Shown: piece by piece, positions 24,922-63,412 of the stretch
How the letters are laid out: each line of letters starts with the position of its first letter
How positions within the stretch are numbered: position 1 is the first letter of the stretch
NCBI GenBank assembly: GCA_016193315.1
Contig: JACPSJ010000004.1
Span: 1,708-65,707 of the forward strand
Length of the DNA stretch: 64,000 nt
Source: Candidatus Kerfeldbacteria bacterium
GTDB taxonomy: Bacteria; Patescibacteriota; Patescibacteriia; SBBC01; CAIJZX01
Reading direction: 5' to 3'
Translations under genes and position numbers: made by a program
Notes under the pieces: generated by a model
Told to the model about the DNA's origin: nothing
The model's input: the letters and a program-made list of their open reading frames with translations, nothing else
The model's database searches: none

Positions 24922-25059
24922 CCCGTGCCATCTGGACGTACACGAATTTCGGTTTCAGTAAGGCCGACAGATCGGCGCGCTATCATCGTGATAAGTATCT
25001 GTAGCCTGCCCATTTATGGGCTTCCTAAATGTACCACAATTCGCGTCCGTCCCGGTCAC

Positions 25060-25596
25060 ATGAAAACTGTCAATTCCAATCCAGCTATCCCGGACGTAGT
25101 CCGTAAGTTCGACGCCGCGCTCCCCCATTTTCCTGATGGGCGGATTGATTATCGCGGGTCAGGCCGGGCGGCGGTTATTAATGTCGTTGTCAGTGATGGG
25201 CATAAAATTCTTCTACTCAAGAGAAGTAGCCGGGTCGGTGCTTACCGCGGTTTGTGGGCCACGATCGATGGGTACTATGATCGTCTCGTGCCCGTGGAGA
25301 CGATGGCCTTGACAGAACTGACCGAAGAAGTTGGTGCCTCCCCGACCGATGTCGTTCAGGTTCAGACAAAGACGGCTTTTGAGATTTTCGATCCAGCCAT
25401 TCATCGGACTTGGATCGTTCACCCCGTCTACCTTGAAATCAAACACCGACCAAGAATACAGCTGGACTGGGAACACACGGAGTACCGTTGGGTTCAACCC
25501 CAAGACCTGGGTCAATATGATACCATTAAAGGACTCGACCAACTGATAACTCACGTATGGCCATCAAAACCGTCACCATCAAGCAGGGCGCAATGA
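25060..25596 (+). CDS. NUDIX hydrolase
   Basis: Nudix box GLWATIDGYYDRLVPVETMALTELTEEVGA. Listed ORF starts at 24925; first ATG at 25060. Confidence 0.65.
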   Translation: MKTVNSNPAIPDVVRKFDAALPHFPDGRIDYRGSGRAAVINVVVSDGHKILLLKRSSRVGAYRGLWATIDGYYDRLVPVETMALTELTEEVGASPTDVVQVQTKTAFEIFDPAIHRTWIVHPVYLEIKHRPRIQLDWEHTEYRWVQPQDLGQYDTIKGLDQLITHVWPSKPSPSSRAQ

Positions 25597-37181: not shown

Positions 37182-38522
37182 TCATGCAAACATCCCCTGA
37201 ATCTTGATTATCCCCTTTACCAGCTGATCGATATCTTTCTTGGAGTTATATAGATAGCACGACGCCCGCGCCGTGGCCGGTAGCCCGAACTTGCGATGCA
37301 GAATCATAGCGCAGTGGTGGCCGGCTCGGATCGCGACCCCCTGCTCGTCGAGGATCGATCCGATGTCGTGGGGATGCACGCCGTCGATGGTAAACGCGAA
37401 GATAGCACCACGACCCGCTCCCCCTGCCCTGCCTATCCCGAGCTTGCCGAGGGAAGGGCGAGCATCCGCCGTAGGCGGAGGGGAGGTCACCCCTCCTTGT
37501 AAAGGAGGGGTCGCGGCGGGGGTGGTGGGAGCACCCAGCACTTTTACACCGCTGATCTGGGATAGCTGTTCCAGCCCATACCTCGTCAACTCCTGTTCAT
37601 GCTGCCAGACATTATCCATGCCGATTTTTTGCAAGTAATCAATCGCTGCGCCTAATCCAATCGTCCCAGCGATGTTCGGCGTCCCCGCCTCGAATTTCCA
37701 GGGCAATTCATTCCACTGCGCTCCCTCTTTCGTCACTTCCAGAATCATGTCGCCGCCGCGCAGGAATGGCGGCAAGTCTTGGAGAATTTCCTGTTTCGCA
37801 TACAGCGCCCCAATCCCGGTCGGCGCCAGCATTTTATGTCCGGAGAACACCAGGAAATCCGCATCGAGATCCTGCACATCAACTGGCATGTGCGGTGTCG
37901 ATTGTGCAGCGTCAACCAGTATTTTCGCGCCGACCGAATGTGCTTTTTTAGCGATCATTTTTACATCGTTCACCATGCCCAACACATTCGACATCTGAGT
38001 AATCGCCACCAGCTTCACGCCTTTCAGCAACTCACCAAGATTCGACAAATCAAGCTCACCGTTATCCGTTACCCGAATCCACCGTAATTCCGCTCCCCCT
38101 TGATTAGGGGGAGCTGCGCGTAGCGCTGAGGGGGTGGGGGGTGGAAGCCACGGCACGATATTCGAATGGTGCTCCATCTCCGTCGTCAGGATCGCGTCAC
38201 CCCTTCCAATACTCTTCCCAAATGTGTTGGCCACCAGATTGATCGCCTCGGTCGCGTTGCGAGTAAAAATAATTTCCTTCGTCGATTTTGCATTGATAAA
38301 CTTCCGCACCTTTTCACGCGCACCTTCGTACGCATCCGTGGCTCTCACCGACAAAGCATACACACCGCGATGCACGTTCACCCCATACTGTTCGTAATAT
38401 TCTCGCTCCGCATCAATCACCGCCTGCGGTTTCAAGCTGGTGGCGGTGGAATCTAAATAGACCAGCTTCGGATTGGCCTTGAACATCGGGAAGTCGTTCT
38501 TGATCGTTTCAGTAGACAGCAT
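37182..38522 (-). CDS. sufS: cysteine desulfurase SufS (class V aminotransferase) with two low-complexity in-frame insertions
   Basis: SGHKMLAPTGIGALY (PLP Lys), RAGHHCA and a C-terminal Cys loop. Extra segments LPPPTPSALRAAPPNQG and TTPAATPPLQGGVTSPPPTADARPSLGKLGIGRAGGAG are inserted relative to canonical SufS. Confidence 0.9.
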   Translation of the reverse strand: MLSTETIKNDFPMFKANPKLVYLDSTATSLKPQAVIDAEREYYEQYGVNVHRGVYALSVRATDAYEGAREKVRKFINAKSTKEIIFTRNATEAINLVANTFGKSIGRGDAILTTEMEHHSNIVPWLPPPTPSALRAAPPNQGGAELRWIRVTDNGELDLSNLGELLKGVKLVAITQMSNVLGMVNDVKMIAKKAHSVGAKILVDAAQSTPHMPVDVQDLDADFLVFSGHKMLAPTGIGALYAKQEILQDLPPFLRGGDMILEVTKEGAQWNELPWKFEAGTPNIAGTIGLGAAIDYLQKIGMDNVWQHEQELTRYGLEQLSQISGVKVLGAPTTPAATPPLQGGVTSPPPTADARPSLGKLGIGRAGGAGRGAIFAFTIDGVHPHDIGSILDEQGVAIRAGHHCAMILHRKFGLPATARASCYLYNSKKDIDQLVKGIIKIQGMFA

Positions 38523-40225: not shown

Positions 40226-40654
40226 TTAATTGTCGGATGAGCGGGCGTGTTCATGAGACTTTGTCACCTCTTGACGAATCAGCCCGCTCATGTGGTCTAA
40301 CGCTTCCGGTTTGGCTACCTTCACGCGATCCGGATCTAATTCACGCCGACCGTGTAGCGGCACGACATGCAAATGCGCATGCCGTACTCCCAGGCCCTCA
40401 ACCACCAACCCGATTCTGATCGCTCCCGAGACTCGCCGCAGGACCGGCTCAAGTCTCCGCGCTCGCTCAAACAAGCCGTTGTAATCTGCGATACTCATGT
40501 CGTAGATCGAGTCGGCGTGATTTTTGGGAATAATCAGCAAATGCCCAGCGTTGAGAGGCTGGCGATCAAGAAACGCCGTAAACCGGTCATCTTCCCATAT
40601 GTGGTATCGATGATCTTCACCAGACGCAATCCGGCAAAAGGGGCATTCCTTCAT
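40226..40654 (-). CDS. HIT-family (histidine triad) nucleotide hydrolase
   Basis: ...GVRHAHLHVVPL... is an HxHxHxx motif; N-terminal CPFCRI zinc-ribbon-like start. Confidence 0.8.
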   Translation of the reverse strand: MKECPFCRIASGEDHRYHIWEDDRFTAFLDRQPLNAGHLLIIPKNHADSIYDMSIADYNGLFERARRLEPVLRRVSGAIRIGLVVEGLGVRHAHLHVVPLHGRRELDPDRVKVAKPEALDHMSGLIRQEVTKSHEHARSSDN

Positions 40655-41160
40655 CCCACGCTCCCCGGCTCAGTTTCTTCTTCTTGGAAGTAGGCGGCTT
40701 GTTTGCTTTGAATTGCCCGCAGCAGGATTGTGAGGCGCGGTCCGAATTGCTTGACCGTGAGCTTCGGTACCTCGTCGACCGAGACGAACTGGTACGAATC
40801 TAGTTCATCGGCTTGAAGATCTAGTTTGATGTCGTCTGGTAATGTTCCGCCGTAGAAGAAGAAATGCATCACGTCATCGTTATCGGTTGGGCGTGGTGCG
40901 TGCACAACACCGATAAACTCGGGTTTCTCGATTCTTAGTCCGATCTCTTCCCGTGTCTCTCGAATGCACCCGTCTCGAGGTGACTCATATTGACCAACCA
41001 CTCCGCCCGGGATAACCCAGACTTTCTTGTACGAAGGCTTCACGAGCAGCACTTCGTTCCTACTATTCAGAAATACCATTCCTGCCGAAATCCGTTTCTT
41101 CGGCATTCGACGTAAATATTCCTCACGCGGCAGCCAGTCTTTATCACCGGGTTTGCTCAT
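40651..41160 (-). CDS. NUDIX hydrolase
   Basis: GGVVGQYESPRDGCIRETREEIGL Nudix box. Confidence 0.8.
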   Translation of the reverse strand: MSKPGDKDWLPREEYLRRMPKKRISAGMVFLNSRNEVLLVKPSYKKVWVIPGGVVGQYESPRDGCIRETREEIGLRIEKPEFIGVVHAPRPTDNDDVMHFFFYGGTLPDDIKLDLQADELDSYQFVSVDEVPKLTVKQFGPRLTILLRAIQSKQAAYFQEEETEPGSVG

Positions 41161-42566
41161 CCAACCGACCCCTCCATCTCCAACTGAATTAACTTATTCA
41201 ATTCCACCGCATACTCCAATGGTAATTCCCTGACAATCGGCTCAATAAACCCGCTGACAATCAACCCCGTCGCCGTCGGCTCATCAAGACCACGCGACAT
41301 CAGATAGAATAACTGCTCCTCACCCACTTTGGACACCGTGGCTTCATGGCCCAGGCTGACGTCTTTGGCTTTGATTTTCATGGTCGGATAGGTGTCTGAA
41401 CGTGACTGCGGATCAAGGATCAGGGCATCACAGCGGACGTTGGACTTAGAGAAACGTGCTTCCGGTCGAATATCAATGAGCCCGCGATACGACGTCCGAC
41501 CGCCATCTTTGGAAATAGACTTCGAGGTAATGATTGACGACGTTTCCGGAGCGAAATGAAGCGCCTTACCGCCGGCATCTTGGTGCTGCCCCTGACCGGC
41601 AAACGCGATCGACAGCACTTCGCCATGCGCTTTCCGGCCGACCAGATAGACCGACGGATATTTCATCGTCACCCGCGAACCTAAATTGCCGTCGATCCAT
41701 TCCATCGTCCCCTCCTCGTGGACCTGTGCCCGCTTGGTCACGAGATTGTAGACGTCTTTCGACCAGTTTTGAATGGTCGTATATCGTACCCGCGCGCCGG
41801 GTTTGACGAAAATCTCGACCACCGCCGCGTGCAATGAATCGCTGGCATACACCGGCGCCGTGCAGCCCTCAACGTAATGGACAAAGCTGCCTTCCTCGAC
41901 GACGATCAGCGTTCGCTCGAACTGGCCCATGTTTTTGGCGTTGATGCGGAAGTACGCTTGGAGCGGCATTTCAACTTTCACCCCTTTCGGCACATAGACG
42001 AACGACCCGCCAGACCAGACCGCACTGTTCAGAGCAGCAAACTTGTTATCGTGCGGCGGAATCAACGTGCCTAAGTACTGCTTCACAATTTCTGGATATT
42101 CACGCAGTCCGGAATCCATGTCGGTAAAGACTACGCCCTGCTTCTCTAATGAACTAATTAACGAATGATAAATAACCTCGCTATCATACTGGGCCCCAAC
42201 CCCGGCCAAAAACTTCTTTTCCGCTGCTGGGATGCCTAGCCGATCAAACGTTTTTTTCATCGAATCCGGCACATCGTTCCATGTCCGCCCCTGTTCTTTC
42301 ACCGGCTTCAGGTAGTAGTAAATATCGTCGAACAAAATCTCATTCAAATTCGCCCCCCACTGCGGCATCGGTTTTTGGAGAAACGTTTGGTAGGCCCGCA
42401 AACGAAACTCCGTCATCCACTTCGGCTCGCGTTTGTGTTTCGATATTTGTCCGACCACGGCCGCTGACAATCCCTTGCCCGTCTTAAACACCCCCTCTTC
42501 GGGCATGCTAAATCCAAAACGGTAGGTGTCGAGCGTTTGCGTGGCTTGTTGAGCTTTGAGGGTCAT
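41157..42566 (-). CDS. sufB: Fe-S cluster assembly protein SufB
   Basis: 469 aa. The C-terminus ...VSKVGEEQLFYLMSRGLDEPTATGLIVSGFIEP... is highly characteristic of SufB. Confidence 0.9.
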   Translation of the reverse strand: MTLKAQQATQTLDTYRFGFSMPEEGVFKTGKGLSAAVVGQISKHKREPKWMTEFRLRAYQTFLQKPMPQWGANLNEILFDDIYYYLKPVKEQGRTWNDVPDSMKKTFDRLGIPAAEKKFLAGVGAQYDSEVIYHSLISSLEKQGVVFTDMDSGLREYPEIVKQYLGTLIPPHDNKFAALNSAVWSGGSFVYVPKGVKVEMPLQAYFRINAKNMGQFERTLIVVEEGSFVHYVEGCTAPVYASDSLHAAVVEIFVKPGARVRYTTIQNWSKDVYNLVTKRAQVHEEGTMEWIDGNLGSRVTMKYPSVYLVGRKAHGEVLSIAFAGQGQHQDAGGKALHFAPETSSIITSKSISKDGGRTSYRGLIDIRPEARFSKSNVRCDALILDPQSRSDTYPTMKIKAKDVSLGHEATVSKVGEEQLFYLMSRGLDEPTATGLIVSGFIEPIVRELPLEYAVELNKLIQLEMEGSVG

Positions 42567-42738
42567 GTATTCCTGAGCGTGAGCGAAGGATCTCTGGAAA
42601 CGTAAACGCGGATTGTTGGCAAGCGTCCTTTAGCCACCGGCATATCCGGTTTTTTCTAATTCCACCGCCAACTCCGGTCCGTCCCCTCCTCTGATGAGGC
42701 GGGGTGGCCCGACGCGCTTCGCCGTCGGGACAGGGTGG

Positions 42739-43476
42739 TCAAGAAACACGGGTTGGCTCATACCCACTTTTTTCTAATTGTACGGCAAGATCAGGTCCTC
42801 CCCTCTTCACAATACGACCCCCCACCAACACCTGCACCACGTCCGGCTTGACGTAATCCAGCAACCGCTGATAGTGCGTGATGATCAAAAAACCGCGGTC
42901 CGGCGAGCGCATGGCATTGACCCCTTTGGCCACGATTCTAAGCGCATCAATATCCAGTCCCGAATCCGTCTCGTCGAGAATGCACATCGACGGCTGGAGA
43001 ACCATCAGCTGCAGAATTTCCGCCCGCTTTTTTTCGCCGCCGGAAAAACCTTCATTGATGCCGCGAGTGATGAAATCTTCGTTCATCCCCATGGCGCTCG
43101 TTTTCTGTTTCATCAACTCGAAAAACTCCGGCACCGGCATTGATTCTCGGCGCCGAGCATTCATCGCCGTCCGCAAGAAGTTTCCCATTGACACTCCCGC
43201 CACTTCTTGCGGGTATTGGAACGAAAGGAACAAGCCGAGTTTCGATCGCTCATCTGGTTTGAGACTCAAGACATTATGACCTTTATACCGAATACTTCCT
43301 CCTGTTACCTGGTACTTCGGGTGGCCCATCAATGCGGCGGCCAAGGTTGACTTTCCTGATCCGTTCGGGCCCATGATGGCGTGGACCTCGCCCTGAGAGA
43401 CGCGAAGGCTCAGGCCACTGAGTATTTCTTTCCCTTCAACTTTCACCCGAAGATCATGAATGTCCAACGTCTTCAT
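42739..43476 (-). CDS. sufC: Fe-S cluster assembly ATPase SufC
   Basis: MKTLDIHDLRVKV...GPNGSGKSTLAAALMGHPKY Walker A; ABC signature LSGGEKKR (FSGGEKKR here). Start ATG at 43476; listed ORF to 43518. Confidence 0.9.
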   Translation of the reverse strand: MKTLDIHDLRVKVEGKEILSGLSLRVSQGEVHAIMGPNGSGKSTLAAALMGHPKYQVTGGSIRYKGHNVLSLKPDERSKLGLFLSFQYPQEVAGVSMGNFLRTAMNARRRESMPVPEFFELMKQKTSAMGMNEDFITRGINEGFSGGEKKRAEILQLMVLQPSMCILDETDSGLDIDALRIVAKGVNAMRSPDRGFLIITHYQRLLDYVKPDVVQVLVGGRIVKRGGPDLAVQLEKSGYEPTRVS

Positions 43477-43958
43477 GTTGTTGAAAGTTCCTGCTGGAGA
43501 TGCTGAATGACGGGCCAAGCCACGGGGTGAAACTTTTCAGGCCCCAATGATACGAATAATTCCCAGTGTGGGTGTTTAGCCTCACGGTCATTGGTCACAT
43601 GACCTACCGGGATTTTTTGGTTAGTCACTCGAAAAAGATGGAACTCATTCCGGCAGTGATAAACTTTACCTGAAGGATTGTATAGAAAATAATATTCGTT
43701 CCGGTCGAAATTCTCTCCACTTCCTATCCGTAATCCTGCTTCCTCTTGAACCTCTCGCCTGGCGGCCTGCAAAGCGTCCTCTCCATCCTCGACCTTACCG
43801 CCGGGAAACCAAAGGAGTCCGGTGCTCTTTGTCGTCATCAGTAAAATCTGGTCTTTCTGTAGCACTAAAGCGTACGCTCCGCGACGCTCGATAGTTTTGA
43901 TAGGATCTACGTGAATTTTCCTGCCGAAAATGTCGTAGCCTTCAGTTGTGGTGCTCAT
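43473..43958 (-). CDS. NUDIX hydrolase
   Basis: GGKVEDGEDALQAARREVQEEAGL Nudix box. Confidence 0.8.
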   Translation of the reverse strand: MSTTTEGYDIFGRKIHVDPIKTIERRGAYALVLQKDQILLMTTKSTGLLWFPGGKVEDGEDALQAARREVQEEAGLRIGSGENFDRNEYYFLYNPSGKVYHCRNEFHLFRVTNQKIPVGHVTNDREAKHPHWELFVSLGPEKFHPVAWPVIQHLQQELSTT

Positions 43959-43977
43959 AACTTGTAGTTAGGGTCAC

Positions 43978-44433
43978 TCATTCCTTCACCGCCCGCACAT
44001 CGGCCTTGATGTTCCGCTCATTGCCGTCGAACCACATTTCGGCTTCGAACTTCTGCCCGGAGATGACATAGGGCAACCACTGATCATCGCCACTCCACAT
44101 CTGGGCATAGGGGATCTGATCGACGGGAAACCACTGGGGTTTCATTTCGTCAGTCTCCACCGGCTGGCCTTCGAACTCCTCCGTGCGAAAGACCGTCACT
44201 TTCCAGTCCCCGACTTTCGAATCATGGTACAAAATCGTGCCCAGGGATTTGTCGAGCGTGGGCGTCAACCCAATTTCTTCTTTCGTCTCACGGATTCCGG
44301 CCAGGCGGGCGTTCTCGCCAAACTCAACCTTGCCGCCGGTCCCGTTCCACCGCCCAACGCCAAAGCCGCGCTTCTTCATGGCCAACAGAATGTGCGCCCC
44401 TTTCAGGATATAGACGAGCACCCCGTTGGTCAT
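43978..44433 (-). CDS. NUDIX hydrolase (MutT-like)
   Basis: GGKVEFGENARLAGIRETKEEIGL Nudix box. Confidence 0.8.
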   Translation of the reverse strand: MTNGVLVYILKGAHILLAMKKRGFGVGRWNGTGGKVEFGENARLAGIRETKEEIGLTPTLDKSLGTILYHDSKVGDWKVTVFRTEEFEGQPVETDEMKPQWFPVDQIPYAQMWSGDDQWLPYVISGQKFEAEMWFDGNERNIKADVRAVKE

Positions 44434-49961: not shown

Positions 49962-51337
49962 GCGGGAACAATTACAATCGAGTTCGGCAACCCTCGGCCG
50001 GGACCCAGGATATAACGACCATTCAAGTAGAGAGCGGTCGAACCACCGCCGTCGAGATTGAGAGCGTAGTCGAGACCGAGGCCGTCCATGGCCGCCGCCG
50101 AATCGGTGACTGTTGCCCCACGGACGATGAGCAAGAAGATGGTGTCTCCTTTCCAGCCGATGGCGCCGCGGTATGATTTGACCGTCGCCTGTTTACTATC
50201 AAGCTGGTACTGCCCGACCACATTCTGACCAGCAATGACCAGCGGTGGGCCGTTACTCAGCGCCGCCCGCAGGATCCCGCTGCCGCCCTTGGCTAACGAG
50301 TCGGCCCGGAACCCATCAAGAAACTTCTGGTAGCTGCCGAAAGTCTTTGACTGGCGGTAAAAAAATGGCCGATTGCTGGTGTCAAAGGCAAGCAGCGGCT
50401 CGACCGTATACTTGATCCGGCCGGCGTTGATCATGGTGCGGGTAAAAGAGTTGTAGACCGGCGCAAAATAGTGACCGGTTTGCCCGACGCAACTGGCATA
50501 TTCGGCCGGGCAGAAGTAGGTGCCGTGGATGCCAGCGATGCCGGCCCGCCGGCCGACATAGGTCGACAACGAGTAGACCGGACAGTTGTTCGCGCAATCC
50601 CCGTTGGTGGCAGTATCAGTCATCAGTTTGACCGCCGGGTTCTTGCGGTCGAACGTCAAGTAGTCAACCAGAAACGTGCCGCGGCTGGTGGCGACGTTCT
50701 TCTGGCCGAGGGCGACGCCGCTATCGACCGGAATCTGGCTTAGGTTGGCGTTAGTGATGCCCAATCCCAACCGCCGCATTAAGGTAAAAGCGTCCGCCGG
50801 GCGTCCGAGGAAGTAGCGCTGCTGGGTCTTGGGATAGACGTACCACGCTTCGCCGTTCCGTTCGACTTGGATTAGGATCCGGCCGGCCAGACGTCGACGA
50901 AGCGCCAGGTCGCCTTCTGACGCGCTGCCGGCCACCGGGATTTTGGCCAGGTTGGCGTCGGAAATTCCCAGTCCCAGTCGACGCATGATATCAAAAGCAT
51001 CCGCGGGACGACTGAGGAAAAACCGGGTCAGCGTCACCGGATGGACGTACCACGCCTCGCCGTTCCGTTCGACCTGGATCAGAATGTAACCTGATACGCG
51101 TTCGGCCACCGTCGCCAAGGACCCGGTGTTTGGCCAGAGCAGAGCCAACCAGATGATAGCCGCGATGGTAACAGAAATCTTACGCATCGATATTGCCATT
51201 ATACCATAGGCCGCCGAGACGGCTGCACGTGCGACCGCTCTCAAAAAATACTGATAATGACCAGGATGCCGAAGGCATTGGCCAAAAACGACAGGCCGAG
51301 AAAACGCGCGGGCGTGACATCCGAGAAGCCAAACCAT
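49958..51337 (-). CDS. secreted phosphodiester-glycosidase (NAGPA-like) domain protein with the same N-terminal ~46-aa tandem repeat (x2)
   Basis: Repeats as in 45156..46220. C-terminus ...DYALNLDGGGSTALY..., typical of the phosphodiester glycosidase family. Confidence 0.7.
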   Translation of the reverse strand: MVWLLGCHARAFSRPVVFGQCLRHPGHYQYFLRAVARAAVSAAYGIMAISMRKISVTIAAIIWLALLWPNTGSLATVAERVSGYILIQVERNGEAWYVHPVTLTRFFLSRPADAFDIMRRLGLGISDANLAKIPVAGSASEGDLALRRRLAGRILIQVERNGEAWYVYPKTQQRYFLGRPADAFTLMRRLGLGITNANLSQIPVDSGVALGQKNVATSRGTFLVDYLTFDRKNPAVKLMTDTATNGDCANNCPVYSLSTYVGRRAGIAGIHGTYFCPAEYASCVGQTGHYFAPVYNSFTRTMINAGRIKYTVEPLLAFDTSNRPFFYRQSKTFGSYQKFLDGFRADSLAKGGSGILRAALSNGPPLVIAGQNVVGQYQLDSKQATVKSYRGAIGWKGDTIFLLIVRGATVTDSAAAMDGLGLDYALNLDGGGSTALYLNGRYILGPGRGLPNSIVIVPA

Positions 51338-51753
51338 CCAGCTGCCAGTTCATCGGGTAACGGCGAGGCCACAATCAGAATCCCCAGCCCATAGCGCATC
51401 CAGCGCGGCAGGTGCTCTCGATGTGGCATCCGTTCAACCAGGGCCTGGATGAAGTGCCAATGGATGCTCTGGCGGAAAACGGTAAAGGCCAGCAGGTCAT
51501 ACAAAGCGGCCCCCATCCCACCGATCAATGTCACTGCCAAAGGATTGAGTGATTCTGGTAATTGAGCAAAAATCACGGACGCGAGCGGCGAGGTCAGACT
51601 TAATCCATACAAAATGCCGCTAACAAATGCAGCTACGTACCCGGATCGTTCGACGTCGGTCACCAGCTCCCGGAGCGGGGGTACGCTGATAATCAAAGCT
51701 GCCCCGACGACGCCGATCGCGAAACCGAGCCAGCCGACGTTATGACGACTCAT
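51241..51753 (-). CDS. small polytopic membrane protein (SPLPDEL-motif family), translationally coupled to the upstream FRD-Rieske gene
   Basis: ATG at 51753 overlaps the upstream TGA (ATGA). Paralog of 59285..59815, sharing ...TSPL..V.F..LP.S.NP......GG.G.A.YDL...I.ASPLPDEL..G.S... Confidence 0.55.
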   Translation of the reverse strand: MSRHNVGWLGFAIGVVGAALIISVPPLRELVTDVERSGYVAAFVSGILYGLSLTSPLASVIFAQLPESLNPLAVTLIGGMGAALYDLLAFTVFRQSIHWHFIQALVERMPHREHLPRWMRYGLGILIVASPLPDELAAGWFGFSDVTPARFLGLSFLANAFGILVIISIF

Positions 51754-52796
51754 GTTTTGACTTCGACGCTCTGGCCTTGGACGCGGACTTGATAGACTGG
51801 TTGCGGATCGAGCGCGGGGCCGCGCAGCACGGCTCCAGTCTGGACGTTGAATCGTGATCCGTGCAGCGGGCACTCAACGACGCTGCCTTCTACAAATCCT
51901 TCACATAGGGGGCCTGCGGCGTGGTTACAACGGTTATCGAGCGCAAAGACTTCGTTCCCGAGCCGAAACAGAGCTAGCTGTTTGCCGTTGACCGTCGCGC
52001 AAAACGGTTTCCCGTCGGCCAGTTGATCAAGTGCGGCCACGCGAACAAAGCCCGCTTCACTACTTGCGGCGCTGGTTTGGTGGATCGGCACAGGCGGCTC
52101 AGTCACGGGTTGAGGAATCGACGGTTCAACCACGCGCTCAGCTCGTTGGCGGGCTCCGGTCAGACGCAGGAAGGTCGCGACGATCGCCGATACTCCGAAC
52201 ACCAACCACAACCACCGCAAATTCGTGCCTTGAACATCGCTGCCGATGTTCCATGAGTGCAGCCAAACGAGAGCAAAAACTAGGTAATTGAGAACGTGGA
52301 CCCTCCGCCACCACCGCTTGACGGACACCAATTTTCGCAGCAGCGCCGCGCCGACCGTCATGTACAACAACGCCAGAGCCGTATACCCCAGCCAGATGTA
52401 CTTGACGTTTTCCGGGGCCACGAAATCCCGTCGTAAATAACTTTGGATGCCCACGCCTACAAATAACAGCGCGGGGTGAGTGGTGGCGAATAGCAAAACG
52501 AAGATGCCTTGCCAGCGATGGTAGCGCTCAATACCGGTGTAAATTCGCCGCAGGTGGGGCATCAGCGAACCGATCATCAACTGCATCCAGAGCAAGGTAA
52601 AGGCGTACAGGCCGAACAATGGAAACATCAATTTCGACCAGGTCTTCGCGTCGGCTCCGGATAAGAATGACGCCCCGCCGCGGAGGCTAAAAAACATCTG
52701 GCCTGGCAGCCATAGCAAGAAAATGGCTGCCAATGGCAAGAGCCAACTGCCAAGTGTGATCATGACTGACCGCTGGTTTGATTGTTTTTCAGTCAT
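51750..52796 (-). CDS. ferric-reductase-like (YedZ/MsrQ-type, heme-binding 6-TM) domain fused to a C-terminal Rieske [2Fe-2S] domain
   Basis: TM region with conserved His pairs; C-terminus ...CNHAAGPLCEG...CPLHGSRF... is the Rieske CxH...CxxH motif. Confidence 0.75.
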   Translation of the reverse strand: MTEKQSNQRSVMITLGSWLLPLAAIFLLWLPGQMFFSLRGGASFLSGADAKTWSKLMFPLFGLYAFTLLWMQLMIGSLMPHLRRIYTGIERYHRWQGIFVLLFATTHPALLFVGVGIQSYLRRDFVAPENVKYIWLGYTALALLYMTVGAALLRKLVSVKRWWRRVHVLNYLVFALVWLHSWNIGSDVQGTNLRWLWLVFGVSAIVATFLRLTGARQRAERVVEPSIPQPVTEPPVPIHQTSAASSEAGFVRVAALDQLADGKPFCATVNGKQLALFRLGNEVFALDNRCNHAAGPLCEGFVEGSVVECPLHGSRFNVQTGAVLRGPALDPQPVYQVRVQGQSVEVKT

Positions 52797-55124: not shown

Positions 55125-57866
55125 TTACCGTTTCAAAATCTCCCCTAAGCGCTTGATGGCTTCGCCGTAGGCCGCCCAGTTTCCTTCCCGTTGCGCGCGC
55201 AGCGCTTCTTCATAGACTTCGCTCGCCCTTTTCGTCAGCTCTTGAAGATCTTGGGTCGGTACCGACGGCGCGACGGCCGCCGGTCTTTTTTGATCCTCCG
55301 GCTTGGCGACCGCTCCGAACAGTTTTGCCAAGCCCATTTCTAGTGTTTCCTCCATGGCGATTCTGTTTTCATACGCAACAATCACCCGTTTCAACTCAGG
55401 AATTTTTCCGGCTTCGGCTTTCAGGTAGAGCGGCCGGACATACAGCAGGGATTCCTCGATGGGGATGACGAGCAGCGGTCCTTGGATGACCTGTGATCCG
55501 CCTTGGTCCCAGAGTGAAATCTGTCGGCTAATGTCCGGATCTTGGTTGATGCGACCAATAACCTGTTTCGGCCCGAACACCAGCTTGTCTTTTGGAAAAC
55601 GGTAGATCATCACTTTGCCGTAGTTGGCGCCGTCGCTACGGGCAACCATCCAGGCGGACAGGTTGTCTTTGCCCCGCGGTGTGAATGGAAGCATCAAGAT
55701 GAATTCTTCCTGTTTCTCGCCGGGCAATTTCATAATAATATGCCGGGGCGACATGCCAGCCACGGAACTGGCCGACGTTCCTTCACCTTCCGACGGAATA
55801 GCCGGAATATCCCACTGGTCTTCTTTGTTGTAGAACACCTGCGGATCGTCCATCTGGTAGGTCGAGTACATCGCCGTCTGTAAAGTAAAGATGTCTTCCG
55901 GATAGCGCAGGTGCGGCACCAATCCCACCGGCATCTCGGCCAGCGGGCGGAAGGCGTGGGGGTAGATCTTGGCGTAGGTAGTCAAGATGGGATCTTGGGC
56001 GTCCGCCTGGTAGAACGTTACGCTGCCGTGGTAGGCGTCGACCACCACCTTGACGGAGTTCCGGATGTAATTGACGCTCCGTCCGTTCAACAGCGACGGC
56101 TGGGCATACGGGTAGCGATTGCTCGTCGTGTAGGCGTCGGCAATCCAGTACACCTGGCCGTTAGAAATGACGATGTACGGATCTTGGTCAAAGATCAGGA
56201 ACGGCGCGATCTTCGCCACCCGCTCCCGAATCGTGCGGTAGTAAAGAATGCGACTGGCGCTGGTCACATCATTAGACAAGAGGAGCTTCAGCGATTGAAA
56301 TCGCAGCGCGAACATCGCCCGCTTGAGGAAGGAGTTGATCTCGACGCCGCCCTTGCCAGCGTAGGTCGCGTAGACGTTTTCCTCACCCCTGGGGTAATCG
56401 AACTCGCGCGATTTCGTTTTCGCGATGACGTAGTCGTTCGCCAACGCGCCGTAGTAGATCTCCGGGCGCGTCACCTCCAGCTCTTTGACGTCCGATTTGG
56501 GCGGTACATCCTTGACGAACAAGACGGGCAATCCTTCCGGCGTGACCTGATTGACCGGACCGGCCGCCACGCCGTACCCGTGCGTGAAGGTTAGCCGTTC
56601 GTTGATCCAATTCTTGTTCGGCAAGCTGTCCGACGCCAACTCGCGCGGCGATAGCATGATTTGGCGGATCTTCCCGTCAATCACGTAACGGTCATTATCG
56701 ACCTCGGTGAATTCGTAGTAGGTTCGAATTTCCTGAATCTGCGAAAAGGTTGAGAGCAGCGGCTGCCGATCCCAGAGACGGACGTTCTTGATCGTCAGAT
56801 CGTTCGCCAAGATATCCGCCGCGATGATCGGCTTGTCTCCCGAAATATCCCGCTCTTCGATTGCGTCTAGGGCATATGCCCGACGCGTGGCAGCAATATT
56901 CCGCTTAATGTAAGGGGTTTCCTTGACCAGCTCATTCGGGTCGACCATAAGTTTTTGGACCGCCAGCGGGACCAGCGCAGAGGCGATACCGACGACCAGG
57001 TACAATCCGATGGCCGCGATCAGCGGTGTCGCCTTTCCCCGCGCCGCCCAGACCGCAGCCGCGACTGCCGCCAGGACGGCGGTTGTGACCGATGCCCACA
57101 GCATCGGTATTCGAACCGTCACGTCCGTGAACACAGCTCCGGCCACCGGGCCGGTTTGATTCATGACTAACCGAAAGAGCGACAAATACGCTCCAGCGGC
57201 GACCGTTATCATGAATAATGCTAGCAAGACACCGAGATGGGTTTTCGCCCGCTCCTCCGGCTTTAATTGTTTGAGCGCTCGCAGCCCCCGGAAGTTCAGC
57301 ATGCCCCGCGAGACGTAGATCACGACGCAGCCAATCGTGGTCAGCACAATCAGCGCCTTGATCAGACCTAGCCCCAACTGCCAGATGGGCAATGTGAATA
57401 TATAAAAGCTGATATCCTTATTGAAGACCGGATCGGCTGCCCCAAAATCGGTCTGCGCGAAATAATTAAGCACCGCCTGCCAGTTCCCGGCGGCCACCAG
57501 ACCAAAAATGAGCGCGATCGCGGCACCGACGACCGCCATGAACTTTCTGACCACGCGATGATCTAGGTTTACTAGCTTGCCGAACAACGCCGCGGGCATG
57601 GTGATGGTCCACGGAATGGCTGAGCCCATCGCCAAAGAAAAATTGACGAGCAGCCAAACGGCGGCCACGACTGCTACGCCCGCCGTCAGCAATATTTTTG
57701 CGACCAGGGATTTAATAAAAATCTGGGTATACCCGACTTCGGAGAACCACCACCAGTCAGTCACCATCGAGATCGCGTTCGAAAAAACTACCAGAACAAT
57801 GAACGCGACAAGAATGAACTTCCGGATAGGGAACTTTTTTCTGGTCACGGGATTCAATGCGGCCAT
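55125..57866 (-). CDS. UPF0182-family large membrane protein
   Basis: 913 aa; N-terminal multi-TM region (...VTDWWWFSEVGYTQIF...) and a large extracytoplasmic domain. Confidence 0.85.
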   Translation of the reverse strand: MAALNPVTRKKFPIRKFILVAFIVLVVFSNAISMVTDWWWFSEVGYTQIFIKSLVAKILLTAGVAVVAAVWLLVNFSLAMGSAIPWTITMPAALFGKLVNLDHRVVRKFMAVVGAAIALIFGLVAAGNWQAVLNYFAQTDFGAADPVFNKDISFYIFTLPIWQLGLGLIKALIVLTTIGCVVIYVSRGMLNFRGLRALKQLKPEERAKTHLGVLLALFMITVAAGAYLSLFRLVMNQTGPVAGAVFTDVTVRIPMLWASVTTAVLAAVAAAVWAARGKATPLIAAIGLYLVVGIASALVPLAVQKLMVDPNELVKETPYIKRNIAATRRAYALDAIEERDISGDKPIIAADILANDLTIKNVRLWDRQPLLSTFSQIQEIRTYYEFTEVDNDRYVIDGKIRQIMLSPRELASDSLPNKNWINERLTFTHGYGVAAGPVNQVTPEGLPVLFVKDVPPKSDVKELEVTRPEIYYGALANDYVIAKTKSREFDYPRGEENVYATYAGKGGVEINSFLKRAMFALRFQSLKLLLSNDVTSASRILYYRTIRERVAKIAPFLIFDQDPYIVISNGQVYWIADAYTTSNRYPYAQPSLLNGRSVNYIRNSVKVVVDAYHGSVTFYQADAQDPILTTYAKIYPHAFRPLAEMPVGLVPHLRYPEDIFTLQTAMYSTYQMDDPQVFYNKEDQWDIPAIPSEGEGTSASSVAGMSPRHIIMKLPGEKQEEFILMLPFTPRGKDNLSAWMVARSDGANYGKVMIYRFPKDKLVFGPKQVIGRINQDPDISRQISLWDQGGSQVIQGPLLVIPIEESLLYVRPLYLKAEAGKIPELKRVIVAYENRIAMEETLEMGLAKLFGAVAKPEDQKRPAAVAPSVPTQDLQELTKRASEVYEEALRAQREGNWAAYGEAIKRLGEILKR

Positions 57867-58112
57867 AATTTCAACTGCATTGTCTCAAAAAGAAAGGGAA
57901 AAATCAAGTCAGCCCCGTTTAGAGACGAGACTGGTTTGCGTTCTCGGAAGGGATGATTCAGGATACTGGATACATCATCCGTTTTTCTGGTATCAGCTTT
58001 CGCCACTAACGGGGTCAGCGGTCAGCAAACTAACGTCACGACGGCGGGACGACCAACCCCGCACCATTTTCGGACAGTCTCCATCAATACCAAAAACGCT
58101 GGTGGCTCCCAG

Positions 58113-58206
58113 GGTCGGACTCTCCCGCCTCGATGGCGGGGTCCCGCCTGCCTCACCCTAGATTCATAGGGGCGGGAGAACCGACAACCATTGCCTTAAT
58201 CCCGCC
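58113..58206 (-). repeat. GC-rich bipartite hairpin repeat, copy E3
   Basis: ggtcggactctcccgcctcgatggcggggtcccgcc ... gggcgggagaaccgacaaccattgccttaatcccgcc. Part 2 is near-identical to copy E4. Confidence 0.55.
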
Positions 58207-58398
58207 CCAGTTCGGGAACGCACATCAAGCAAAGCGCTCGTGGCTCGCCACTCCGGTCTAGAACCAACCCTTTGAAGGGTTTTGTGAGACTTTAGCGATT
58301 TTCAGGAGGAATTGAGACAAATGAGACACTACCTAAGGGGTCTGTCTTGTGTCTCAAAACCCAAGCACTTTAAACAATTTTACTCGGGTGGACAACTC

Positions 58399-59307
58399 TT
58401 AACTCGGCCTGAGCGTCCCGCTGAATATCTCCCAGGCCAGCAGAGACTTAGCTACCAGACTCAAGATCATATATGCCCGTTCCCCGTAGAGATAATCCCG
58501 CCACGGACCAACTTTTTTATACTGCAAGACCATGTTCAGCGCAAAGATAGAAAAGGTGGCAAAGATCGTAAAGACAATGGCATAGACGAATCCTGGAACA
58601 TTTACGCCCGCGCTGCTGATGGCCTTCCCGAAGTATGTAAAAATCACCAACCACGGTATTGCACCCGCAAAGACGCCAATCCAATATGCCAGCCAGCTCG
58701 TTTTCGTTGTGGACTGATTGTGCACCTCCATGACCAGTCCCATCAGATTCATGATCGCATTGAGCGAGAACAGGGCGGTCAGCAACCAGAAATCATAGAC
58801 GCCGCAGAGCATCGCGATGATCCAGATCATGACCGACGAAGACAGCATGTATTCAATCCAGCGCAGCTTGTTCATGCCTTTGGCAAGATTCGCTTCATAC
58901 CAATGGCGGAGTGGTCCGGCTAACAGGAAATGAGCGAGGGCTGAGAGAAAAAGAAAGACCGCGACGGCCGGTCCAATGCGCAGGTCAAACCAATGTTCCG
59001 GCGTTGGGGCGATGCCAAACGTCGGATTCGTCGGATCAATCCGCAGGTACGACGTGACCACGGGTAAAGACGAATCATTGCTGATTGCTACCATAACCAC
59101 GCCTTGAATAAAGTGCAGGGCGGCCATTGACCAGTTCCAGGCCCGTAAGGAGTGAAACCGCAATTCAGCAGGTGTGCTCGTGCCCATCGTGTTCATATGG
59201 TCGTAATTACTGTTTGTTTCATAGTCCGATTGTAGCATGTTTGCCACGCATTGAGCATCCGCTGTCGCTTGCGCCCTGGCGCCACTATTGATGAATGCTC
59301 CGCCCAA
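58399..59307 (-). CDS. heliorhodopsin (inverted-topology 7-TM retinal protein)
   Basis: Strong match to heliorhodopsin hallmarks: ...NKLRWIEYMLSSSVMIWIIAMLCGV..., ...PGFVYAIVFTIFATFSIFALNMVLQYKKVGPWRDYLYGERAYMILSLVAKSLLAWEIFSGTLRPS (Schiff-base Lys in SLVAKS). True start is probably downstream of the listed one (MNTMG...). Confidence 0.85.
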   Translation of the reverse strand: MGGAFINSGARAQATADAQCVANMLQSDYETNSNYDHMNTMGTSTPAELRFHSLRAWNWSMAALHFIQGVVMVAISNDSSLPVVTSYLRIDPTNPTFGIAPTPEHWFDLRIGPAVAVFLFLSALAHFLLAGPLRHWYEANLAKGMNKLRWIEYMLSSSVMIWIIAMLCGVYDFWLLTALFSLNAIMNLMGLVMEVHNQSTTKTSWLAYWIGVFAGAIPWLVIFTYFGKAISSAGVNVPGFVYAIVFTIFATFSIFALNMVLQYKKVGPWRDYLYGERAYMILSLVAKSLLAWEIFSGTLRPS

Positions 59308-59815
59308 TCAACGTAATCGCCAGAATGCCGGCGGTGTTGAGAGCAAATGACAAGAGGAGGAACCACCTCGTTGACATCTTTGAAAAACCAATCATGGCAA
59401 TGCCGAGTTCATCCGGCAGCGGCGAGGCAATCACGATGCCGCCCAGGATCACCGACGCCCAGGTCCGGTAGCGGTTGTGATTCAACCAGGCGGTGAAGTG
59501 CTCCACAATGGAAACATGCGAGGCGCGGCCAAGTAGACGGTAAATGATCAGGTCATACGAGGCCGAACCAATGCCACCCAGAATTGCCGCCCCGATCGGA
59601 TTGACGGAGACTGGCAATTCAAAAAACATCACGGCCGAGAGTGGCGACGTAACCACATTTGCATACATCGTCCCAGCCATGAACGGTGCAAGGTATCCGA
59701 CTCCGGCGATAGCCAGAAGTGCAGACCGCCAGCTTGGGATAGCCAGAACAAGGATGGCGATCGCCACTCCAGCGGCGAATGCGATGTAGGTTATTTTTTT
59801 ATCGAGATGCATCAA
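59285..59815 (-). CDS. small polytopic membrane protein (SPLPDEL-motif family), paralog of 51241..51753, immediately upstream of the heliorhodopsin
   Basis: ...VVTSPLSAVMFFELPVSVNPIGAAILGGIGSASYDL...IVIASPLPDELGIAMIGFS... Confidence 0.55.
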   Translation of the reverse strand: MMHLDKKITYIAFAAGVAIAILVLAIPSWRSALLAIAGVGYLAPFMAGTMYANVVTSPLSAVMFFELPVSVNPIGAAILGGIGSASYDLIIYRLLGRASHVSIVEHFTAWLNHNRYRTWASVILGGIVIASPLPDELGIAMIGFSKMSTRWFLLLSFALNTAGILAITLIGRSIHQ

Positions 59816-60098
59816 TTAATGAGTTATTCCTGATTGCCGTTTGGTAATTAAGTATACCACTTGGCTTAAAAAATGAATCTCCACGCCTTTACAGGTGTGG
59901 AACTCCCGCTAAAAATTAGACCCTCGCTTCTGCACAGTCTGTGCGACGCTTGGCTCAACCTAATCCGCCCATCGATTAATCACATCAAAATAATGATGAA
60001 CAACTGATGGCAAAATAAGAACTGAGGTTAACAAAAAAAACAGTTTTCTACCTCACCTACATCGGCTGTAACCCTGAATAGTCGCTTCAGATTGGCAC

Positions 60099-62423
60099 TT
60101 ACTCGGGCAATGTTATTCGCCCTGATCGAACGTTCACCGCCGCAGTCCCGACGTATCCACCAGTGGTATTCGCCATGACTGCAATAATGTGAGGACCGAG
60201 GACGCGTGGCACCCGCCAGCTGGCCGTGCACGTGTCAGCCAAGCAGGTTTGCAGGGGGGCTCCATCGACATAGACATCAAGTGATTGGAGAGTCGGGATG
60301 GGGGCCGTCGCGCTGGTTGAAATGGTAACCGTGCTTGGCGTACCGACCGTTTGCCCCGCGACCGGAGAAGCGATGGTCACCGCTGGGTTATGGCTGGCGT
60401 CATATGCCCCGTCGACGTCGATGATTTGGACGACAGATCCTTGCAATGTTGTGTCTTCGGCGTTGGCCACACCGACTGAAAAACTGTAGAAGCCAGTGGC
60501 GATATCGGATGGTGTGATGACTGTGAAAGCGACGTTCTGTTGCGTTAGGGCTGGTACCGAAACAGTCAGTTTCTCCGGCGAAACTGACCAGCCGCTCGGC
60601 ATCGTCGGGGTGATGGTGAATTTTGCCGGGTCGCAGGCTAGGGAGTCAGCATTGAGCATCCGGAACCCGACCGTACCTCCCGTCGTAGGGATCGCTTGAA
60701 ACGAATACTTTTTGAAGATTCGGGGTGCTCGATGAGTACAGTTCGACAAGGCCACGTTGACCTGAGCATTCGATGTCGTTACGGACTGGGTGGTGATGGC
60801 GATGCCATTGTCCGCATCGGTAAACGTTTGACTTGACCCGAGCGCGATATTTCCAGATACAGCGACGTCCGCATCGATCAGATTGGAAAGGTTGGGCGGT
60901 GTGGTGGCCATATAATTAGACAAACGAATTTGTACCCCATTCACGTTTGGATCGGTGGGGGCGTAATTGTCGAACGGGGGGAACGGTTGGCGGTACTCAA
61001 GATGGTAGTAGGTAATCTGTCCGCCACTATTGACGTTCCGAGGGATACGCAATGTCTTGAGACCGGTCCCGGGGGCTCCTAACGGTTCGATAGTGCATGG
61101 TTGGACAGCTGGGCAATCGTTATTCGAACCAACATCCTGAGTATGTGAAGCCTGAAACCAACTCAGCTGATCGCGATGGTAGGCGTGCATCAGACCGGGA
61201 TTAGAATTGCCCATCACCTCCAGTGAATCTCCGTATTCGCTCGTGGTACAGGTGCCGCCAATCGGTTGTTTGTTGCCCGAACCGTCACGACAGGTAATGC
61301 TGCCTGAGTGATTGACGCCAAATGCGTGTCCCAGTTCGTGGCCGAGAACTAGTACTTCCTGACCACTCCAGAGGTCATAAATACGGATGTTCTTGGCATT
61401 GATCAATGTTGCCCCACCGACTCCAGAATAGCATCCCGAGGGCATGGGCGTGTAATAAACGACTTTGTCATAGCTATTGAGGTCTACTCCGGGCGCGTCA
61501 AGAGGACCGTATGAACAATTGGTTGTGTTGAAGGTGGTCGTGTAGTAACCATAGACCTCCCCCGTCAGGGTCAGTTGACCGTTGGAAGCGTCGAGATAGT
61601 ATTGTTTTACAGAATTACTATTGGTGAACATGTAGCCATTCATCTGGCTAGTGGATACTGGTTGTCCACGACCCGGATACGTAAACATCAAGACCGCGAC
61701 CCGCTTGGTACCGACTGCCGCCAGCGACTGAATAGGTTCACCAATCACCTGGAGGCCAAGCGAACCCTGTGTCGACGGCGACTCGGTATTCCCCACCGGC
61801 AGTGTCATGGTGTCGTCAAGTTGCAGGCCAGTGACTTCAACCACGGTGCCCGGCTGGATGTTTGGTATCGGCCCAGCAAAATAAATTCTAAACGAATCTT
61901 CATGGCCCTCTGCTTTCACAGCGTAAAAGTACGTCGCCACCCCGAGGCGAAAGTTATCAGTATGCCCAATCCCAAACTGCCCCCTGACCGTCCTCTTCTT
62001 TTCAACGAACGACTGAACGGCCGCCGGTAAAGATCGTTGTTGGCTGTCGTTTAAACTTGTGCGTAAAAACGATGTTGGATCGTGCTTGACTAACGACAGT
62101 GCAGCGTTTTTTCTCCGCTCGGCCAGCAAGCGCAACTGATTGAGTTTTCCTGGTTTGGCCGAGGCCGTCGCTTTCTTATATTCTTCATTCAGTTTGAGAA
62201 GTTCAGTGGTCAACGATTGGAAGGTGGACAAGGTTTGTTTCTCGGTCACAAAGATATTTTTCCAAACTAAAAAACCGCCTGCCGCCAGGATACCGGCCCC
62301 AAAAATGAGTAATGCGACCGGGGCGACGGTCCAGATATGTATTTTTTGTCTTGTTTCTGCCACTTTACTTTTCATTACTGTCCGACTTTTCGGAAGTATA
62401 GCACTTCTTGATCCAAAAATCAA
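60099..62423 (-). CDS. membrane-anchored metzincin-type zinc metalloprotease with C-terminal beta-sandwich domains
   Basis: HELGHAFGVNH (HExxHxxGxxH); N-terminal TM; long Thr/Ser/Gly-rich C-terminal domains. Probable start MKSKVAETRQK at 62375. Confidence 0.75.
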   Translation of the reverse strand: MIFGSRSAILPKSRTVMKSKVAETRQKIHIWTVAPVALLIFGAGILAAGGFLVWKNIFVTEKQTLSTFQSLTTELLKLNEEYKKATASAKPGKLNQLRLLAERRKNAALSLVKHDPTSFLRTSLNDSQQRSLPAAVQSFVEKKRTVRGQFGIGHTDNFRLGVATYFYAVKAEGHEDSFRIYFAGPIPNIQPGTVVEVTGLQLDDTMTLPVGNTESPSTQGSLGLQVIGEPIQSLAAVGTKRVAVLMFTYPGRGQPVSTSQMNGYMFTNSNSVKQYYLDASNGQLTLTGEVYGYYTTTFNTTNCSYGPLDAPGVDLNSYDKVVYYTPMPSGCYSGVGGATLINAKNIRIYDLWSGQEVLVLGHELGHAFGVNHSGSITCRDGSGNKQPIGGTCTTSEYGDSLEVMGNSNPGLMHAYHRDQLSWFQASHTQDVGSNNDCPAVQPCTIEPLGAPGTGLKTLRIPRNVNSGGQITYYHLEYRQPFPPFDNYAPTDPNVNGVQIRLSNYMATTPPNLSNLIDADVAVSGNIALGSSQTFTDADNGIAITTQSVTTSNAQVNVALSNCTHRAPRIFKKYSFQAIPTTGGTVGFRMLNADSLACDPAKFTITPTMPSGWSVSPEKLTVSVPALTQQNVAFTVITPSDIATGFYSFSVGVANAEDTTLQGSVVQIIDVDGAYDASHNPAVTIASPVAGQTVGTPSTVTISTSATAPIPTLQSLDVYVDGAPLQTCLADTCTASWRVPRVLGPHIIAVMANTTGGYVGTAAVNVRSGRITLPE

Positions 62424-62650: not shown

Positions 62651-62652
62651 AG

Positions 62653-62722
62653 CTCCGAGGGCGAGATTCGAACTCGCAACCAATCGGTTAACAGCCGATT
62701 GCTCTCCCTGGGCGCCGCGGCT
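62653..62722 (-). pseudogene. tRNA-Asn(GTT) fragment: intact anticodon arm + T-arm + 3' acceptor, degenerate 5' acceptor/D-arm
   Basis: Sense 3' portion ATCGG CTGTTAA CCGAT TGGTT GCGAG TTCGAAT CTCGC CCTCGGA G; the 5' part (CCGCGGCGCCCAGGGAGAGC) cannot form a D-stem. Confidence 0.5.
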
Positions 62723-62835
62723 CCTGCGGAGCATCGCGTCACCCGTTCGCGCGGCCGCACGTGAAGCAGTTCACGTGCTAGCTTGCAGCTGCCGCGCGAA
62801 CCCATTTCGCTACCCAGAAGCCTAAGCCCACCCAG

Positions 62836-62907
62836 CTCCGGGGGCGAGATTCGAACTCGCAGCCAATGGATTAACAGTCCACTGCTCTACCGTTGAGCTA
62901 CCCCGGA
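62836..62907 (-). tRNA. tRNA-Asn(GTT)
   Basis: Sense: TCCGGGG TA GCTC AACGGTA GAGC A GTGGA CTGTTAA TCCAT TGGCT GCGAG TTCGAAT CTCGC CCCCGGA G. Flanks extend acceptor complementarity to about 15 bp (cacccagctccgggg / ccccggagctgggtg). Confidence 0.85.
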
Positions 62908-63100: not shown

Positions 63101-63412
63101 GTGACTCGTAAGCAGTACATGGCAAGCAAACTCTACGTTGGCGGTCTGTCCTACGACACCACCCAGGAGTCGTTGCAGCAAACGTTCTCCCAGGCTGGAT
63201 CCGTCGTCTCGGCGACCATCATTACCGATAAGATGAGCGGTCGGTCGCGCGGCTTTGGCTTCGTCGAAATGTCGACCGAGGCCGAGGCGAACAAGGCCAT
63301 TGAAATGTTCAATGGCCAGGAGCTCGATGGACGACGATTGACCGTCAACATCGCCCGCCCGATGGCTGAACGCCCGCCTCAACGAGGCGGCGGATTCCGG
63401 AATCGGTACTAA
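63101..63412 (+). CDS. RRM-type glycine-rich RNA-binding protein
   Basis: RNP-2 LYVGGL and RNP-1 RGFGFVEM motifs; RGG tail. Confidence 0.8.
   Translation: MTRKQYMASKLYVGGLSYDTTQESLQQTFSQAGSVVSATIITDKMSGRSRGFGFVEMSTEAEANKAIEMFNGQELDGRRLTVNIARPMAERPPQRGGGFRNRY

Follow-up and report, generated by a model that had tools for sequence, protein, structure and literature searches.

An intact heliorhodopsin gene of Candidatus Kerfeldbacteria and its non-conserved upstream neighbour, a small membrane protein of the ASPLPDE family

Characterised heliorhodopsins regulate proteins that are encoded upstream of them in the same operon (PMC11109279, PMC9529153, PMC9769723), and the proteins under such control include a membrane transporter (PMC11109279). 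The genes found next to heliorhodopsins have been sorted into ten neighbour groups, three of which are MerR, ABC transporter and SDR (Cho et al. 2024, PMC11109279). Among CPR bacteria, a survey recovered 98 heliorhodopsins among 115 rhodopsin sequences, from 86 of about 1,300 screened genomes (Chiriac et al. 2022, PMC9166423). The CPR heliorhodopsins are found in Saccharimonadia, ABY1, Microgenomatia and others, and SLVAK is among their commonest motifs (PMC9166423). Rhodopsin-bearing CPR do not carry blh, and their retinal is thought to be supplied by other organisms (PMC9166423, PMC9296517). Heliorhodopsins bind exogenous retinal rapidly, and the absence of blh is normal for their hosts (PMC9296517).

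The locus described here lies in a 64,000-nt stretch of contig JACPSJ010000004.1 from Candidatus Kerfeldbacteria (the window in what follows). A heliorhodopsin ORF and the ORF of a small membrane protein, termed the partner below, are arranged head to tail, both on the minus strand. The pair, its flanking genes and the predicted RNA elements around it are as follows.

58399..59196, minus strand: likely heliorhodopsin coding sequence, 265 codons plus stop (profile HMMs, homologues, GenBank MBI2984916.1)
58399..59307, minus strand: maximal heliorhodopsin ORF in the ORF list, 302 aa from a TTG at 59307; the extension is probably not translated
59197..59284, minus strand: intergenic gap of 88 nt from the partner stop to the heliorhodopsin start (gene boundaries)
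59285..59815, minus strand: partner ORF as maximal frame, 176 aa from a TTG
59285..59812, minus strand: partner coding sequence with ATG at 59812, a 175-aa membrane protein of the ASPLPDE family, in GenBank the hypothetical protein HYY50_04825
60099..62423: M6-like metalloprotease/Big_7 gene, 774 aa, on the upstream side of the gene pair
55125..57866: UPF0182 gene, 913 aa, on the downstream side of the gene pair
59868..59901, minus strand: hairpin resembling a terminator (59880..59901) with a U run after it (59868..59873), located between the protease and partner genes
58290..58398, minus strand: structured region directly 3' of the heliorhodopsin stop (RNA fold z = -2.37, equalled by 4 of 200 shuffled sequences)

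The product of the minus-strand frame 58399..59307 is matched by Pfam profile PF18761 with E = 3.2e-96 (321.8 bits against a cut-off of 26.7) along the full profile (positions 1–242 of 242), and by the NCBIfam equivalog NF038020 ('HeR') with 332.3 bits against a cut-off of 100. These scores are far beyond chance and confirm the preliminary description, in which the ORF had been recognised as a heliorhodopsin from its motifs; those quoted there (RWIEYMLSSSVMIW, ERAYMILSLVAKSLLAWEIFSGTLRP and, for the partner, SPLPDEL) are all found in the translations. The protein aligns end to end with TaHeR (PDB 6is6, E = 1.9e-70) and over its full length with 48C12 (PDB 6su3, E = 1.9e-57). In the 265-aa numbering, S246-L-V-A-K250 stands opposite the SLVAK lysine of TaHeR, E115 of the RWIEY motif opposite RWFEY, and H28 and the histidine of SALAH opposite the TaHeR histidines. 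In TaHeR, we take E108 to be the counterion glutamate on helix 3, and H23 and H82 to be the conserved histidine pair. By this numbering, K250 is presumably the retinal Schiff-base lysine, E115 the counterion, and H28 with the SALAH histidine the conserved pair. The ORF is intact and keeps the Schiff-base lysine, the counterion glutamate and both conserved histidines, and the short N-terminal tail of the protein carries arginine residues. It is 100% identical to GenBank MBI2984916.1 ('heliorhodopsin HeR', 265 aa, Candidatus Kerfeldbacteria), and both it and the upstream protein are identical to entries from one Ca. Kerfeldbacteria MAG. Relatives at 65–85% identity are full-length proteins. Judged by profile and alignment, this is a genuine, ordinary and intact member of an already known family; GenBank already lists the gene under the name HeR, and it is new neither in kind nor in annotation.

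The 302-codon heliorhodopsin ORF first described does exist, and it is only the longest frame. The HMM matches begin at residue 54 of this frame, close homologues are 256–265 aa long, and both GenBank and independent gene calls on identical contigs give a protein of 265 aa that starts with MNTMGTST, at the ATG at 59196. The coding sequence is therefore most likely 58399..59196, and with this start an apparent 23-nt overlap with the partner gene becomes an 88-nt gap. The overlap had been considered as a sign of translational coupling, a reading that was rejected as homologues and annotation favour the 265-codon start. An antisense ORF at 58312..58923 (plus strand) was taken as a by-product of the coding strand. 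The small membrane-protein gene had correctly been placed directly upstream on the same strand (59285..59812), and it ends 88 nt before the heliorhodopsin start.

This upstream SPLPDEL protein had also been put forward as a conserved, and hence informative, neighbour of the heliorhodopsin. Neighbourhood statistics for the partner family, the check suggested together with that claim, were compiled in both directions. From the heliorhodopsin side, 90 loci (572 kb) were collected, comprising 80 metagenome relatives at 50–75% identity and the 10 closest loci, the latter being places from nine proteins that are 74–84% identical and include one from another Kerfeldbacteria MAG. A partner-family ORF was found in 0/90 of these loci by HMM, even at E ≤ 10, and the motif SPLP[DE]E likewise in 0/90. 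Among the first 87 of them, 64 extend at least 700 nt upstream, and about a quarter are too short upstream to inform. The partner gene is absent from the heliorhodopsin locus of the Kerfeldbacteria MAG whose protein is 84% identical. From the partner side, the 80 best family loci from species genomes were examined with 6 kb on either side (841 kb in total), and a heliorhodopsin was absent from all 80. Adjacency of the two genes was seen only here and on contigs of the same sequence that stem from a single run series (SRR121133xx–SRR121134xx; loci L001–L003), and there is no recurrence beyond these. On the loci compared, the claim of a conserved neighbour therefore fails, and the partner and the heliorhodopsin are not a conserved functional pair.

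As a positive control, neighbours were clustered over the same 90 heliorhodopsin loci, which returned MerR plus B12-binding genes (8 loci), ABC transporters (7), DegV (5) and SDR (4). A DedA/VTT neighbour (the superfamily to which the partner may belong, see below) is not among the heliorhodopsin neighbours reported by Cho et al. 2024 (PMC11109279) or Bulzu et al. 2021 (PMC8612252). At the closest loci (heliorhodopsins 74–84% identical), the upstream neighbours are AbiEii (L165), a GDSL lipase (L167), MscL (L169, L171 and L175), a DUF4342/LiaF-like gene (L177) and small unannotated ORFs (L170 and L176). An RRM_1 RNA-binding gene lies about 3–4 kb upstream of the heliorhodopsin both in the window (63101..63412, plus strand) and at L167 (2857–3114), where the heliorhodopsin is 82% identical to that of the window. 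The genes between RRM_1 and the heliorhodopsin differ at the two loci, which suggests that the protease and partner genes sit on a variable inserted segment.

Two further arrangements were seen in the heliorhodopsin loci. In 8 of the 90 (L095, L101, L103, L112, L125, L131, L132 and L140), a MerR-HTH plus B12-binding gene of the CarH/LitR-like kind starts about 15 nt after the heliorhodopsin on the same strand, which places two photoreceptor types side by side; Cho et al. 2024 already describe this group, under the name 'MerR'. The loci L169, L171, L175 and L177 (heliorhodopsins 74–80% identical) share a neighbourhood with methionine sulfoxide reductase (PMSR), either an ECF sigma factor or a PspC/LiaF-like envelope-stress module, and MscL upstream of the heliorhodopsin, and DUF1648 and an asparaginase downstream. 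This may be simple synteny, or it may reflect a setting of membrane and oxidative stress, as Bulzu et al. proposed.

The transcription signals of the window locus are compatible with a shared transcript. A consensus scan of the gap (59197..59284) returned no promoter-like or terminator-like site, and its RNA folding is at the level of shuffled sequence (z = +0.30); over 58100..60200, the counts from the promoter/terminator scan were not above those of shuffled sequence. The hairpin at 59880..59901 was missed by the scanner because its U run begins 6 nt past the stem. An RNA fold of 59810..59930 (minus strand), which spans the hairpin, gave z = -1.76, and hairpin and U run together may act as a terminator. 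The structured region 58290..58398 is possibly the end of the transcription unit. It has no Rfam match, and Rfam searches of the whole window at gathering thresholds and of 57800..60150 at E ≤ 1 returned tRNAs only. The partner and heliorhodopsin genes are operon-like in being on the same strand, closely spaced and free of an intervening terminator, but their 88-nt spacing is wider than the limit of <10 bp that Bulzu et al. applied. Co-orientation, the gap free of a detectable terminator, and the terminator-like and structured elements that flank the pair make a bicistronic unit plausible, and a transcript of both genes in this strain is accordingly a plausible one; co-transcription is by itself no proof of shared function.

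The partner protein has no Pfam or NCBIfam match of its own. A database search returned 58 homologues with 28–56% local identity (29–43% over most of the length), of which the few from named sources belong to CPR and to one DPANN archaeon (Pacearchaeota); a few carry a precomputed PF09335 match or the label 'YdjX/TVP38/TMEM64'. Across 35 aligned members, the block A129-S-P-L-P-D-E135, from which the family takes the name used here, and G137 are invariant, and a G..G....D segment is conserved. With an E-value limit of 1e-3, a profile of the family retrieved 1,140 clusters (50% identity), and a limit of 1e-10 left 1,019; nearly all are 175–200 aa long. The ASPLPDE family is thus discrete, with a sharp E-value boundary and about 1,100 clusters. 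A pattern scan in which each species was represented by a single genome, a sample to which the MAG holding MBI2984916.1 does not belong, detected the family in at least 587 genomes. Nearly all of these are Patescibacteria/CPR; some are 'Gammaproteobacteria' MAGs that are mislabelled.

The Pfam profile VTT_dom is matched by 10 of the 35 aligned members. One of these (P0005) passes the gathering score, with 38.9 bits against 33.9 over profile positions 1–122, which is full-length; the 9 further matches are sub-threshold, and those that were individually re-scanned keep a consistent register along the profile. Alignment of the family with E. coli DedA, YqjA, YdjX and YdjZ by hhalign paired the expected segments weakly (E = 0.013, probability 3%), the family sequence profile gave chance matches only against the PDB, and PDB fold searches with the partner returned no significant match. 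The AF2 model of the partner (pLDDT 83.7) has an N-terminal TM helix, then a helix-break-helix element (41–50/56–68) near P57, a long helix (72–96), a short helix (101–110), a second helix-break-helix element (116–129/134–143) with its break at S130-P-L-P133, and a long helix (148–174). The DedA domain has been described as running from re-entrant loop 1 through TM helix 1 and an extramembrane segment to re-entrant loop 2, which contains a P-x-P turn, and on to TM helix 2 (Okawa et al., bioRxiv 10.1101/2020.12.18.423352), and the modelled partner follows this re-entrant-loop order at the level of secondary structure only. The ASPLPDE family probably belongs to the DedA/VTT superfamily as a compact and remote branch, by a membership that is transitive only, and by analogy its members presumably carry out ion-coupled transport or lipid scrambling. 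Although a side product of modest value here, it is a sharply bounded, CPR-wide and uncharacterised putative mini-branch of that superfamily. The only recurrent neighbour of the family is a P-type cation ATPase (E1-E2_ATPase, Cation_ATPase_N/C), which lies about 1 kb downstream of the family gene, mostly on the same strand, in 18 of the 80 partner loci (L005–L084; for example L043:1184-3928).

The window itself holds a second copy of the family, 7.5 kb from the first.

51241..51753, minus strand: the other paralog of the ASPLPDEL family, with 170 aa counted from M41 (119.8 bits and E = 4e-36 with the family HMM)

It is 36% identical to the partner (BLASTP) and matches VTT_dom with E = 5.9e-5 (24 bits). 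As read from the sequence, its ATG overlaps the stop of the upstream Rieske [2Fe-2S]/ferric-reductase-TM gene (51750..52796, minus strand) in an ATGA, which suggests translational coupling of the paralog with the gene of a membrane redox protein. With this copy coupled to another gene, the ASPLPDE family would not be tied to heliorhodopsin even in this genome.

A Pfam scan of about 50 long window ORFs (nearly all of those ≥150 aa) detected no carotenoid or retinal synthesis family, and the earlier statement that no blh or crt gene is visible in the window holds at this scope. The absence of retinal-synthesis genes from the window is the expected state for CPR and for heliorhodopsin hosts.

Other features of the window are recorded here. 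A reading frame (3..10286, minus strand) that stays open for at least 3,428 codons runs off the window start in a region of strong AT skew; its only Pfam match is a weak MerR/HTH-like one near residues 49–92, and a giant CPR protein without domains may be its product. There are five NUDIX hydrolase genes (40651..44433, minus strand, and 24925..25596, plus strand), three of which are interleaved with SUF Fe-S assembly genes (SufB/D, a SufC-like ABC ATPase and a cysteine desulfurase at 37182..38522). About 115 nt separate two tRNA-Asn(GTT) genes (62652..62721 and 62835..62907, both minus strand), which score 40 and 74 bits with Rfam, respectively; the lower-scoring one may be a degraded duplicate.

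The most probable account, in which we have considerable confidence, is that an ordinary Kerfeldbacteria heliorhodopsin occupies a variable position beside one of two copies of a CPR membrane-protein family, and that the juxtaposition is accidental. The heliorhodopsin would be a seven-helix, retinal-binding photoreceptor of inverted topology, with a cytoplasmic N-terminus. By analogy with characterised heliorhodopsins, the all-trans-retinal that it binds would come from outside the cell, as no synthesis genes are visible in the window, and the protein would serve as a light sensor or regulator with a slow photocycle, not as a pump. The upstream gene would belong to a CPR-wide family of about 180 aa (ASPLPDE), with two re-entrant loops and TM helices as modelled, whose members would be housekeeping membrane proteins of CPR. 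Their meeting would be a strain-specific accident of a variable region, even if both genes are transcribed together, and because the pairing is strain-specific and not conserved the locus would carry no information on heliorhodopsin function.

Two other explanations were weighed against this. The heliorhodopsin may form a lineage-specific functional pair with the small DedA-like protein, being co-transcribed with it, binding it and modulating its transport or scramblase activity in the light, on the model of OcHeR-OmrDE. The shared strand, the unstructured 88-nt gap without a terminator, the hairpins on either side of the pair and the precedent of heliorhodopsins that regulate operon-upstream proteins (PMC11109279, PMC9529153, PMC9769723) all fit such a pair, and paired orthologues may exist in unsampled sister strains, given that the partner has no close orthologue (at most 43% identity over most of the length). 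About one in four heliorhodopsin loci reaches too little upstream to be informative. The pairing nevertheless does not recur in 90 heliorhodopsin loci or 80 partner loci, the nearest heliorhodopsin relatives lack the partner, including that of the Kerfeldbacteria MAG at 84% identity, and DedA/VTT is not among the published neighbour classes. The family is also far commoner in CPR than heliorhodopsin is (at least 587 species genomes, against 98 heliorhodopsins from 86 of about 1,300 genomes; PMC9166423). A functional pair is on this evidence very unlikely.

Alternatively, the heliorhodopsin may be recently acquired or drifting and have no photobiological function here, its neighbourhood being meaningless for that reason. 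In keeping with this, related MAGs are from groundwater ('NC_groundwater'), no retinal source is encoded among the long window ORFs scanned, and the local GC content is 52%, against 55–63% over most of the window. The position of the gene differs in every close relative, twice beside AbiEii toxin genes, which suggests a mobile or variable locus. The ORF is nevertheless intact with every functional residue conserved, and its clade keeps full-length proteins at 65–85% identity, which indicates purifying selection; missing blh is moreover normal for hosts of heliorhodopsins, which bind exogenous retinal (PMC9296517). We regard a functionless gene as very unlikely. The preferred reading, an accidental neighbourhood of two ordinary genes, has a useful outcome that is negative: the locus should not serve as evidence for a link between heliorhodopsin and DedA. 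The specific proposal that in the Kerfeldbacteria lineage the heliorhodopsin stands behind a mini-DedA (ASPLPDE) in a two-gene unit and regulates it in the light is highly improbable; if it were true, a putative lipid or ion transporter would join the proteins under heliorhodopsin control, and a CPR-wide membrane-protein family would gain its first functional handle.

Compared with described systems, the gene order resembles AbHeR-glutamine synthetase, TfHeR-photolyase and OcHeR-OmrDE in that a co-oriented gene lies immediately upstream of the heliorhodopsin, possibly on one transcript, and the neighbour is a membrane protein, as is the OmrDE ABC transporter of OcHeR. Unlike the partners of AbHeR, TfHeR and OcHeR, which recur in many genomes, the ASPLPDE gene is present in 0/90 related loci, and its product falls into none of the ten published neighbour groups (PMC11109279). 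The ASPLPDE family shares with the DedA/VTT superfamily (E. coli DedA, YqjA and YdjX; TMEM41B and VMP1; PF06695) a full-length VTT_dom match in some members and, as predicted for the partner, the order of re-entrant loops, TM and extramembrane helices of the DedA domain. It differs from that superfamily in its much shorter proteins (about 180 aa), in the invariant acidic turn of loop 2, and in being a discrete set whose named sources are almost all CPR. The heliorhodopsin is like the CPR heliorhodopsins of Chiriac et al. 2022 in its Patescibacteria host (ABY1 and others in that survey), its SLVAK motif and the lack of a visible retinal pathway; there is no substantive difference from them, and it represents one more instance. 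It is of the same length class as TaHeR and 48C12 and shares with them the SLVAK lysine, the glutamate in RW(I/F)EY and both histidines, but falls, with relatives at 65–85% identity, into a clade of its own, the named members of which are Kerfeldbacteria.
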